From the NCBI RefSeq assembly GCF_003334385.1, contig NZ_QOWN01000040.1: 38,787 bases of DNA; one strand, given 5' to 3'. The position numbers are program-made. Below, piece by piece: positions 27,001-30,000 of this stretch (position 1 is the first letter of the stretch; each line of letters opens with the position of its first letter). This DNA comes from Escherichia coli. GTDB lineage: Bacteria > Pseudomonadota > Gammaproteobacteria > Enterobacterales > Enterobacteriaceae.

Positions 27001-30000
27001 CAGATATCCTTCCTGGTGGGCATATTACCACTTGGCCCGCAACGCTTATTTCTTATTAGGAATACCGTGTTTACTTTTATACTCAGCCGCTTATACATCA
27101 GATTTATTAGATGATAATCTAAGACATTCAATAAGTCTTTTTATTCTGGCATATGGATGTTATTTTCTTCTTTTCATTCCTCCGCTCTGGTTATATCTGA
27201 GAACCAGAGCGAAGAAAAAGAAAGTCCAGCAGGTTGTTCAGCAGATAAAAGAAAGCAGTCCCTTTGCGCCGACCAGCGATTACGAGCAACTGTCATTCTC
27301 AAAGAGTTGTTATTTCGGGATCGACATTAAAAACGGCACCATGCTGTATGTGCGCATTTATCCGAACAATGTGATGGATGTGATTGGTCTGGATATTCAC
27401 AACTTTACCCGCACGGTTGCTGAAGACGGCAAGCTGGAAATCCACACTACATATGTGAGTCTGCCGATGATCCCACTGGAAATCTCCGGCATCTCATCAA
27501 GGACGCTGGCCAACACCATGCACACCATGGCTGCACGTGGATATGAGTACAAGGAACGTTTCCCGCAGATGATTCGGTATCGGGTTAAAGAATGGGAAAA
27601 AGTTGCCGGTGTGCCTGTTGCGGAAGTATTTTGAGGTAGCTATCAACTGTTAGACGATAATCCGTCAGCCGGTTTTCTCTGAACCGGCTTTTTCTTTTCA
27701 GGCAGAATGCCTGTCTGCCGTCTATCTCAGGACGCCGCATGGAGTCTCTATGTTTTCCCCACAAATTCTTAGCACTGTCTTGCCCACTGTAGACAAAATC
27801 AATACAATTCTGCATATCAGTTATCTATAAAAGATAACAATATCATTATAAATAATTATCATATCCACACACTCAAGGCAGTACCTAGAAAACATAAAGA
27901 TAAAATCATGTCTGAATCCCGCAGCAATTTTCCAGCACGACATGGTACTCCATGGAATACTGAAGAGTTACAGCGTCTTCTCGTATCCATAGCGGAGGGC
28001 GTCTCGCTAAAAAAACTTACTCAAACACATCAACGATCGTCCGGGGGAATACGTGGAGCAATCAAACGCCTGCTTCCTTCTGAGTTTCTTGAGTTCAACG
28101 ATATAAACACGGTGAATGATCTCAGCAATTACTTCAACAAGATTCCTCGCCAAGAACACAATAGTATCATCAATAATTTAATATCATTGAGCACTGCAAA
28201 AACAATTGCTCATGATAAAGTTGAAATACAAAAGAATAGTTTTAAACAAAATACCCCACTCCCCCTCTGCCAACCCAATACAGATTTTAAAGATTATATA
28301 GCCGATGAACATGATGTCATTATGCTAATTCATTCTGCTATCGAAAGTTTATCTAATAAACGACATCAATATATTCTTCTAATGCGGCTCGGCACAGATG
28401 ATTCACCTCATTCTCTGGCAGATATTGCCGTCAAATTAGGAATTTCCCGTGAAAGGGTAAGACAACTTCAGGAACGAGCCCTTGGCTTACTAGCTGCTAA
28501 ATCTCGCTATGAAGGGACACCTGGAGCTTGCCTTAAAGCCCTTATTAACTCAATAGGTAATTCACCATATGATATAGCAGTATGGATTTATCGTATTGTT
28601 CATCGGGATTTCGTTACATCCTCTGACTTAGCCGCCAAATTCATTATTTTTACCGCAGGCATTCCTAAAGCAAGACGAGATGAAATAAAAAGTTCGCTCT
28701 CATTAATATCACAATTACAAAAGCAGAGGTTACGTGAACGAAGAGCAGAATTAGCACACGCTCGCGCTCAGGAAAGAGCCCGAATCAAGAAAGAAAGAGT
28801 TGAGTTCATATTCAGTAAATGGCTAGACAATACACATTGGCCAAAATATATCGCACCTCCTCCCCCCGTAGAACAGCTATGTTCACAGAGAGCGGTTAAT
28901 GATACTGACATATCTGGATTCTTTTACTCTCAAAAATTAGGTCGTACAGTCCAGTACGAATCAGGGCTTGAGTTTAAAATAATGAATCTATTAGAATGTT
29001 GCAATCAGGTTCTTTTCTATCAAGAACAACCATTTTCTATTCCATATTGTTTTAAAAACAAATCAAAAAAATACTATCCAGATTTACTCATTGCGACAGT
29101 TGATGGTCGGTGCCTACTTATGGAAGTGAAGCCAACAGACCGAATGACCTTGAGTCTCACGAGAATAAAAAGTAATGCAGGTCGCAAATGGGCACATACT
29201 CGAGGATGGGGATGGTTGGTCATTAGTGATAGGTTCTCGTTACGTCAGCTGGAAGAACATGCCATCTCAACAAACACATGGAAACTTATAGAGGCTGAAC
29301 TGAAAACATCAAGGATTTTAGCATGGCGTGAAATGATGGAGTTACGTACACGATACGAGATTCATCGTTTAGATCTTATTGCATATATCATTCAGTCTGG
29401 TGCTGAAGTGGATAACTTTTATCGAATTACCCCGAAAATATCTAATAATACATCTAACCAGAGACAACCAAATGAGAGCGACTGTCATAATTGATGACGC
29501 ACAGGACGGAAAAAATAATAGCTGCCGGACAGCAGCAACCAGCAGTCGTCCGGTAAAAAAGACAAACAAGGCGCATTGAGGTCAGCCTTCGCAACAATCC
29601 GGCGGCAGATGTCCTGCCGCCGTGTTGCCCGTTAACGTTTAACTTCGTAGGCTAACGTTGCCACAAACACCGTATTTCCCTGCTCGATACGAAATCCGCA
29701 AAGCGAATCCCTCACCATCCAGACAAAACACAGTATCGTCACACAGACGACGATTAACATCATTAAAAACATTCGTTGTGGCATCGCAGCCCCTCCATTG
29801 CCTTTCGGCCGTCATCGGGCTACTATAATGTTGTCTAGGCATTACAGTGGGCCCTGGGTTGATTGATAAAAAAATCGCCTGGGGCTTTCTGCTACATGCC
29901 GTCCACAAAACGCTTTCGGCATACAGCCTCAAGCGCCCGCCGCTATTCTAATCGTTTTCCTGTCCGCCACAATCCTTTTCATGCCACCACGTATTTTGTG

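Follow-up and report, generated by a model that had tools for sequence, protein, structure and literature searches.

Background

What is the function of a gene that is carried by epidemic resistance plasmids, has been in print as a putative sigma factor since 2011, and can be removed with no visible effect on the plasmid or its host? The gene lies at 27908..29494 on the plus strand of a 38,787-nucleotide stretch of Escherichia coli DNA (contig NZ_QOWN01000040.1), here called the window, which is part of a conjugative plasmid of the IncI complex (IncI-gamma/K/B/O/Z). It encodes a protein of 528 amino acids that joins a sigma-70 region 4 to a predicted nuclease domain of the TnsA type. Judged from its sequence, it is probably a single-gene defence or competition module that has no entry in the present catalogues of such systems.

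The window gene is the orthologue of pCT_066, with 522 of 528 residues identical (99%), and both published pCT_066 primers match the window exactly, at 27970-27989 (+) and 29239-29258 (-). pCT_066 was described as the most notable feature of plasmid pCT, a putative sigma factor common to only four plasmids, and it served as a marker for pCT-like plasmids (Cottell et al. 2011, PMC3377399). pCT is called an IncK plasmid, and pCT_066 there a putative sigma-70 factor of an unusual kind. Its replacement (pCT_066::aph) left plasmid stability, growth and biofilm as before (Cottell et al. 2014, PMC4083329). Conjugation to E. coli or Salmonella was unaltered and the competitive index was 1.00; the assays covered stability, outward conjugation, growth, biofilm and competition (PMC4083329). 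We found no later functional work on the gene in the literature, where only the two pCT papers mention it.

Is pCT_066 a sigma factor at all? Or, has one sigma-like domain hidden a protein of another kind? The gene is present in ~5% of complete E. coli genomes, by way of epidemic IncK/IncB/O/IncI-gamma resistance plasmids including pCT, and has been misread as a sigma factor for 15 years while in use as a polymerase chain reaction marker. A nuclease would explain why assays of conjugation, stability and fitness showed nothing. If it is a defence or competition gene, a selective advantage would be travelling with resistance plasmids of the CTX-M type. Here we investigate the protein, its relatives and their genomic surroundings.

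Results and discussion

Domain structure of the protein

The gene is a single open reading frame (ORF) with an ATG start, and its guanine-plus-cytosine (GC) content is 0.38-0.40 along its length, as against 0.55-0.61 in the upstream tra genes. This agrees with an original prediction, made from the sequence alone, of a single AT-rich gene. The same prediction called the protein an orphan of unrecognised architecture, which was mistaken on both counts: the same two Pfam domains occur together in 65 clusters, 439 representatives match at an expectation value (E) <=1e-10, a RefSeq name exists, and the literature has held the gene since 2011, miscalled a sigma factor. The gene is real and already published, with no function and under the misleading name "putative sigma factor". 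Its parts are as follows.

27908..29494 (+): whole coding sequence, 528 amino acids, orthologue of pCT_066; RefSeq WP_000004561-type "TnsA endonuclease N-terminal domain-containing protein"
27935..28081 (+): N-terminal three-helix helix-turn-helix (HTH) domain, residues 10-58, with a Myb/GcrA/Tc3-like fold, then two helices (residues 65-100)
28205..28276 (+): disordered and highly variable linker, residues 100-123, with a predicted local distance difference test score (pLDDT) of 29-32; unalignable and of variable length among the homologues
28307..28501 (+): complete sigma-70 region 4 (4.1 and 4.2), residues 134-198
28520..28828 (+): all-helical middle domain, residues 205-307, with a 54-residue helix (254-307) at its end; AlphaFold2 pLDDT >93
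28910..29227 (+): predicted TnsA-type PD-(D/E)xK catalytic domain, residues 335-440
28958-28972, 29081-29083, 29123-29125 and 29129-29131: predicted catalytic residues E351/E355, D392, E406 and K408, in that order
29240..29437 (+): C-terminal helical/hairpin domain, residues 445-510; in the AlphaFold2 model, helices at 445-497 and then two short strands

Only two Pfam domains are significant, Sigma70_r4 at residues 150-193 (2.2e-8) and Tn7_TnsA-like_N at residues 366-440 (1.9e-11). The NCBIfam model TnsA_like is matched at 2.1e-12, and a search of PHROGs matched both nuclease and sigma families.

The catalytic domain has the N-terminal fold of TnsA with its conserved acidic and lysine residues. 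The motif quoted in the original prediction as a nuclease core, YYPDLLIATVDGRCLLMEVKP, contains D392, E406 and K408. These residues are invariant in 32 homologues, as are E351/S352/E355 and a YQEQP motif; among 50 representatives of 21-32% identity, the catalytic residues are at least 90% conserved and D392 is invariant. Foldseek aligns 230-254 columns with the ~264 residues of TnsA. Pfam TnsA_C was undetected in the window protein, and the modelled domain at residues 445-510 is possibly the counterpart of the C-terminal winged-helix domain of TnsA.

The sigma-like module was also read correctly. Its recognition helix, S180-R-E-R-V-R-Q186, is the counterpart of T583-R-E-R-I-R-Q589 in sigma70, and E182, R183, R185 and Q186 are invariant in the 32 homologues. 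R584, E585, R588 and Q589 of sigma70 are contacts of the -35 element, and their counterparts are kept. Region 4 of sigma-A/RpoD in PDB is matched by the single sequence at 1e-4 and by the family profile at ~1e-15, and the next matches after the family members, in 5.8 billion proteins, are sigma factors of the group-1 type.

Does this make the protein a sigma factor, as the published annotation has it? The complete 4.1 and 4.2 are shared with primary (group 1/2) sigma factors such as RpoD, SigA and RpoS (SRERVRQ against TRERIRQ). Unlike them, the window protein has none of regions 1.2, 2 and 3 and would neither bind core polymerase as a sigma factor nor melt promoters. Sigma70_r4 is the only sigma domain found by Pfam, with no region 2 (core binding and -10 recognition), and the NCBIfam sigma models are confined to query residues ~130-200, with scores of 15-31 bits where the cut-offs are 43-580. 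As read from the sequence, the basic patch that follows the recognition helix in sigma70, a contact site of activators, is not kept. Having region 4 only, with neither region 2 nor region 3, this protein is not a sigma factor.

Could it still be a transcription factor or sigma-like regulator, in which region 4 binds promoters or RNA polymerase and the TnsA fold serves only in DNA binding or oligomerisation? Such a role is suggested by the intact region 4 with its -35-contact residues, by a palindromic upstream region that could be an autoregulatory operator, and by the databases, which call relatives sigma-32 or sigma-70. However, no sigma-factor action is possible where regions 2 and 3 are missing, and the catalytic residues are kept over a wide divergence, which is unexpected for a dead nuclease fold. 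The knockout also left conjugation, stability and growth unchanged (PMC4083329). A nuclease-coupled regulator was one of three roles put forward at the outset; weakened by that phenotype-free knockout, it keeps a small share of the probability.

The N-terminal domain was predicted to be Myb/GcrA-like, and this stands at the level of the modelled fold, where the closest structures are the GcrA DNA-binding domain (PDB 5yiu) and Myb/Tc3-type three-helix HTHs. It does not extend to sequence: a profile of the domain found nothing significant among PDB sequences, and Pfam GcrA matched one of 50 family members (E 0.013). The pairing of a GcrA-homologous DNA-binding domain with a C-terminal sigma-interacting domain, which marks the GcrA family, was not seen. 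The middle helical domain matched no known family, and a role in dimerisation or coupling is our guess. The reading of the whole as an HTH, a sigma region-4 HTH and a TnsA-type PD-(D/E)xK nuclease domain is correct.

The window protein differs from the pCT allele at six amino acids, and five of these lie within 47 codons of the middle domain (240-286; 28625..28765), namely D240E, T249A, S262N, R274K and R286H. One synonymous change lies there too, and the sixth difference is N366D. The cluster could be a recombination patch or the result of local diversification.

The wider protein family

A word-indexed search placed the 65 clusters in Pectobacterium, Dickeya, Salmonella, Providencia, Buttiauxella, Mangrovibacter, Xanthomonas, Stenotrophomonas, Streptomyces, Kitasatospora and Archangium. 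Of 1.84 billion representatives searched exhaustively, 2022 matched with E<=1e-3; 439 of these had E<=1e-10 and 58 had E<=1e-30. The alignments of the best 150 run unbroken, in nearly every case, from query residue ~135-150 to ~497, and the conserved core of the family is region 4, the helical domain and the TnsA module (query residues 135-500). By Foldseek against AFDB50 the architecture is also present in Firmicutes, Bacteroidota, Alphaproteobacteria and Chloroflexi. The usual names there are "RNA polymerase factor sigma-32" and "sigma-70 region 4 domain-containing protein". Members and fragments are widely labelled in this way, or as "RNA polymerase subunit sigma" or "RpoS", in AFDB50 and RefSeq/UniProt. 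The mis-annotation is systematic because the region-4 domain is present, and many database "sigma-32" and "sigma-70" entries are predicted nucleases. A contig profile search with the full alignment returned mostly true sigma factors and at least three new members among the matches listed. No close relative was found in viral contigs, where a profile of the nuclease core gave two loci in 2.9 million; in a phage collection there was one homologue of full length, which came from a mycobacterial prophage.

What lies before the core is variable. A census of 160 full-core members counted 53 with no extension, 68 with a Myb/GcrA-like domain, 34 with other N-termini (including one Ser/Thr kinase with a PEGA domain) and six with the C-terminal domain of the RNA polymerase alpha subunit (alpha-CTD). 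Pfam RNA_pol_A_CTD is matched by 7-8 of 50 members, with a best E of 5.3e-15, and residues 15-84 of one homologue (P0221) match solved RpoA CTDs in PDB at 2e-10. R265, N268, G296, K298 and S299 of the alpha-CTD act in UP-element binding, and the equivalents of all five are present in P0221. Single-gene PD-(D/E)xK nucleases with variable N-terminal modules are already known; the link to promoter-recognition domains of RNA polymerase is unusual.

Why would a nuclease carry copies of region 4 and the alpha-CTD? They might be bait for the proteins with which phages hijack the polymerase, or a guide to the UP element or -35 element of invader DNA. We regard sensing of this kind as a tentative idea, on the unlikely side; the conserved DNA-contact residues favour the guide, or plain DNA binding, over the bait. 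If true, it would be a principle undescribed for any defence system, and the union of these copies with a TnsA nuclease is a testable candidate for a new form of invader recognition.

In the bait version the modules would mimic polymerase surfaces, and their binding or modification by a phage protein would free the nuclease in a manner like abortive infection. Region 4 here is an unusually close copy of that of primary sigma factors, which supply its next matches outside the family, and in some relatives the alpha-CTD replaces the Myb-like domain. The two recruited modules are those that phage factors most often target: T4 AsiA and MotA act on sigma region 4, Alt and ModA on R265 of alpha, and G1 gp67 on sigma region 4. 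PDB 4g6d, in which G1 ORF67 is bound to domain 4 of sigma-A, is among the structural matches. The zero fitness cost in uninfected cells would suit a latent enzyme (PMC4083329). However, the DNA-contact residues are conserved in both modules, for which plain DNA binding is simpler, and 53 of the 160 members have no N-terminal module while most have a Myb-like one. We consider such a decoy improbable.

Three Streptomyces/Kitasatospora members (P0050, P0054, P0055) share a conserved C-terminal extension of ~45 residues (alignment columns 801-849) with the motif PSP(E/D)DIExARTPAGGWTRxQLAxWGVxWPPPxGWKxxL, which is not in the proteobacterial proteins.

Genomic context of the homologues

The surroundings of 15 homologues were compared. 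The gene is solitary in all 15, with no recurring neighbour. No tnsB/tnsC, AAA+ partner or methyltransferase adjoins it in the window or in these contexts, nor is a methyltransferase adjacent in the annotated plasmids, so that, by sequence, the protein shares with Type IV-like systems a PD-(D/E)xK nuclease that has no cognate methyltransferase. By raw count, four contexts have strong defence genes, ~5 weak ones and ~5 none; seven are on mobile elements. Carriers include IncI-complex plasmids, a Providencia plasmid, an F-like conjugative element, a P4-like island, an ssrA island and a mycobacterial prophage. The main contexts are these.

Pectobacterium: AlpA-type island, with Gabija (GajA 9e-269, GajB 2e-230) on one flank of the gene and McrB on the opposite flank
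Xanthomonas: LmuB-like SMC ATPase (1.6e-31) and SIR2_2, Lamassu-like
Salmonella: BrxA, BrxB, BrxC and PglX (BREX)
Homologue P0027: TIR_2, PIN, HNH_2, a STAND ATPase and an integrase
Providencia plasmid: homologue beside a CHAT protein
ssrA-integrase island: with DUF4145
Further site: homologue beside HipA_C
F-like conjugative element: near anti-restriction, RadC, GIY-YIG and KAP NTPase genes
Mycobacterial prophage: one homologue
Metagenome-assembled genome: weak PDC/mad matches
ESX/type VII locus (L107 8001..9140): divergent core-only member of 379 amino acids, with EccB, an FtsK/SpoIIIE-type EccC and EspK_C

The ESX locus may be part of a mycobacterial conjugative plasmid. Between the Pectobacterium homologue and McrB there are three consecutive genes (L005 10150..15274; 734, 643 and 327 amino acids). 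Pfam and PADLOC gave nothing for them beyond a weak ZorA/MotA-like match on the third (8e-6), and they may be a defence operon.

Proposed function

The protein is predicted to be a Mg2+-dependent, stand-alone DNA endonuclease of the TnsA branch of the PD-(D/E)xK superfamily. N-terminal DNA-binding modules borrowed from the transcription machinery would select its target or activate it: here a complete primary-sigma region 4 and a Myb/GcrA-like HTH, and in some relatives an alpha-CTD in the N-terminal position. It would be accessory cargo of mobile elements, with no part in conjugation, replication or partition. It may cut incoming phage or rival-plasmid DNA recognised by the HTH modules, or DNA after a cue of infection. 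An endonuclease serving immunity or competition between mobile elements is favoured because the active site is conserved, the HTH contacts are intact, the gene is solitary, mobile and found beside defence genes, and its loss has no plasmid-maintenance phenotype. From these observations we infer cleavage in vivo, a recognised target and a benefit in defence, and we put the chance that this reading is right at about even. Among the three roles first offered, the defence or anti-plasmid nuclease is therefore the one we retain, as an inferred function: its gene is solitary and mobile, and it stands beside defence systems in four unrelated genera.

Several points weigh against this function. TnsA is inactive without TnsB, and a TnsA-like domain by itself may not act as an autonomous nuclease. 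The sample of contexts is small (n=15) and was not drawn at random, and only four of the 15 are clearly defence islands; the copies in Streptomyces, Nonomuraea, Prauserella and Archangium lie among ordinary metabolic genes with no defence context. The neighbours in the window are exclusion, toxin-antitoxin and small genes with no assigned role, and no canonical defence systems. No PADLOC-DB v2.0 model matches the protein, apart from a weak SspB match over the helical region (5.6e-4, 17 bits), and we found no experiment in the literature that ties any family member to defence. Finally, toxicity would be expected of a constitutively active nuclease that binds promoters, yet no cost is apparent from the knockout, and so the picture lacks some step of control. 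With zero fitness cost, the enzyme would be latent, tightly repressed, or specific for something that the host lacks.

Comparison with known systems

The nearest relative by fold is TnsA of Tn7 (PDB 1f1z, 1t0f), the endonuclease subunit of the heteromeric TnsAB transposase. In contrast to TnsA, the window protein has ~330 extra N-terminal residues with HTH modules and no detected TnsA_C, and its gene has neither TnsB/TnsC nor transposon ends. It scores 47 bits against the NCBIfam NF033179 cut-off of 110, and as no partner genes occur in the window or the 15 contexts it is not a working Tn7 subunit.

A precedent for a region 4 derived from sigma-70 in a defence protein is MzaA of the MZA anti-phage system (NCBIfam NF041931). 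Residues 610-708 of MzaA align with query residues 104-202 (E 1.7e-6). The likeness is limited to region 4, where the score is 27 bits and the cut-off 800. MzaA is part of a multi-gene system and lacks a TnsA domain, and none of mzaB-E is beside the gene in the window. Shedu SduA and the solitary Type IV restriction enzymes offer an analogy only: one gene, a nuclease core, a variable N-terminus and no methyltransferase, likewise in defence islands and on mobile elements. Shedu (DUF4263) has no sequence relation to the window protein, whose nuclease is of the TnsA/endonuclease-I branch and whose N-terminal modules are copies from the transcription machinery. Nucleases of the T7 endonuclease I and T4 gp4 type match the core weakly (PHROG 218 "head closure" 1.3e-11, Phage_endo_I 0.004); they are small single-domain phage proteins, and the match is limited to query residues 341-421.

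The plasmid locus

The gene order in the window is traW-traX-traY-excA-[gene]-pnd(hok/sok)-...-trbA. The features next to the gene are as follows.

26984..27634: excA, adjoining the gene upstream
27667-27689: excA terminator
27690..27907 (+): the gene's own 5' region, downstream of the excA terminator
27780-27808 and 27834-27862: promoter-like hexamers
27821-27837: TTATC-N7-GATAA palindrome, with a function that may be regulatory
29632..29938 (-): pnd-type hok/sok, with a Hok/Gef ORF at 29632..29784 and an Rfam sok RNA at 29782..29938 (125.6 bits)
~36952..38259: trbA, 7.4 kb beyond the gene

The placement "between excA and trbA" given in the original prediction was loose: excA does directly precede the gene, but hok/sok directly follows it and trbA is far downstream. 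The palindromic upstream region of its own is borne out by the palindrome, the hexamers at 27834-27862 and the excA terminator, although promoter-like hexamers are no more numerous than in shuffled sequence. About 140 nucleotides of upstream sequence are common to the homologous cassettes of Pectobacterium, Salmonella and Providencia, so the cassette carries its own control region along when it moves.

Does the position of the gene point to a weapon of plasmid against plasmid? The nuclease would then act on competing conjugative plasmids or incoming DNA at an exclusion/fertility-inhibition locus, rather than on phages. The gene follows immediately on excA, within the variable block that holds finQ and other accessory genes in IncI1 plasmids. 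Conjugative elements also carry three further homologues, one of which has anti-restriction and RadC genes next to it. Chromosomal copies in phage-defence islands speak against such a weapon, and we judge it unlikely.

Is the gene instead selfish or left over, either a homing-type endonuclease, as was also suggested at first, or one subunit left stranded by the decay of a Tn7-like transposon? TnsA is part of a transposase, and the gene is AT-rich relative to its surroundings and patchy in distribution. However, no tnsB, tnsC or tniQ is near it in any context, the TnsA-like score is well below the model's cut-off, and viral contigs are nearly free of the family. The full-length architecture is kept from Proteobacteria to Actinobacteria, Firmicutes and Bacteroidota, and this breadth speaks for a function under selection. 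We sought a clean empty site; what stands there instead is other cargo, with no target duplication or terminal repeats seen at the boundary. In NZ_CP031907.1, window positions 27723..29563 (1841 bp) are replaced by 156 bp (3124..3279), which open a truncated DUF1778-type antitoxin ORF (MPSATQTARLEARISTELHAMLKRAAEIQ...) and end before the hok locus; this is no clean insertion into a conserved target, and homing has no support. A mobility gene of either kind is very improbable. IncI1 plasmids have other small genes and finQ in the same block. Since the gene is replaced by other cargo, the excA-pnd gap is a hotspot of cargo exchange and not an insertion target. A phosphoethanolamine transferase gene is near the excA-pnd site of NZ_CP031907.1.

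Distribution and natural losses

In PLSDB, 315 plasmids have the gene with >=95% identity; in 301 of these the identity is >=99%, and in 281 of the 315 the coverage is >=80%. About 1,500 other IncI-type plasmids match the hok flank only. The gene or its remnants are present in 256 of 5,426 complete E. coli genomes, every one on a plasmid, with 207 at >=80% coverage and 49 holding remnants only.

The gene has been broken or lost several times independently. CP088591.1 has an internal deletion of 1366 bp (27956..29321) next to IS903B/blaCTX-M-14. A 4-bp duplication of AAGA at 28786 is common to several plasmids (NZ_MH618673.1), IS1 has inserted into the gene in Shigella sonnei plasmids (CP102114.1, CP104424.1), IS3 insertions occur too (CP097477.1, NZ_ON556675.1), and there are truncated copies. 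Are the frameshifted copies a sign of counter-selection? We discount this in part: LC620534 has ten homopolymer indels, typical of sequencing error, and the loss of a single base in a C6 run may be an error as well.

Other features of the window

A minus-strand terminator at 29519-29541 is probably the end of the hok/sok transcript. There are two Rfam matches to AgrB-type antisense RNA, at 35973..36060 and 36716..36801 (+), with 47.7 and 51.8 bits. The pair suggests duplicated type I toxin-antitoxin modules like dinQ/dqlB upstream of trbA; related plasmids annotate one dqlB.

An AT-rich segment of 2.6 kb at 31407..33991 (GC 0.30-0.41) is missing from the closest plasmids, S. sonnei p39, pCT and p510016_84. 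It holds a membrane ORF of 154 amino acids at 33428..33892 (-). At 31687..33231 (-) there is an ORF of 514 amino acids for a very divergent phosphoethanolamine transferase like CptA/EptA (102 bits against a cut-off of 404), with weak matches to MCR-4/5/7/8.

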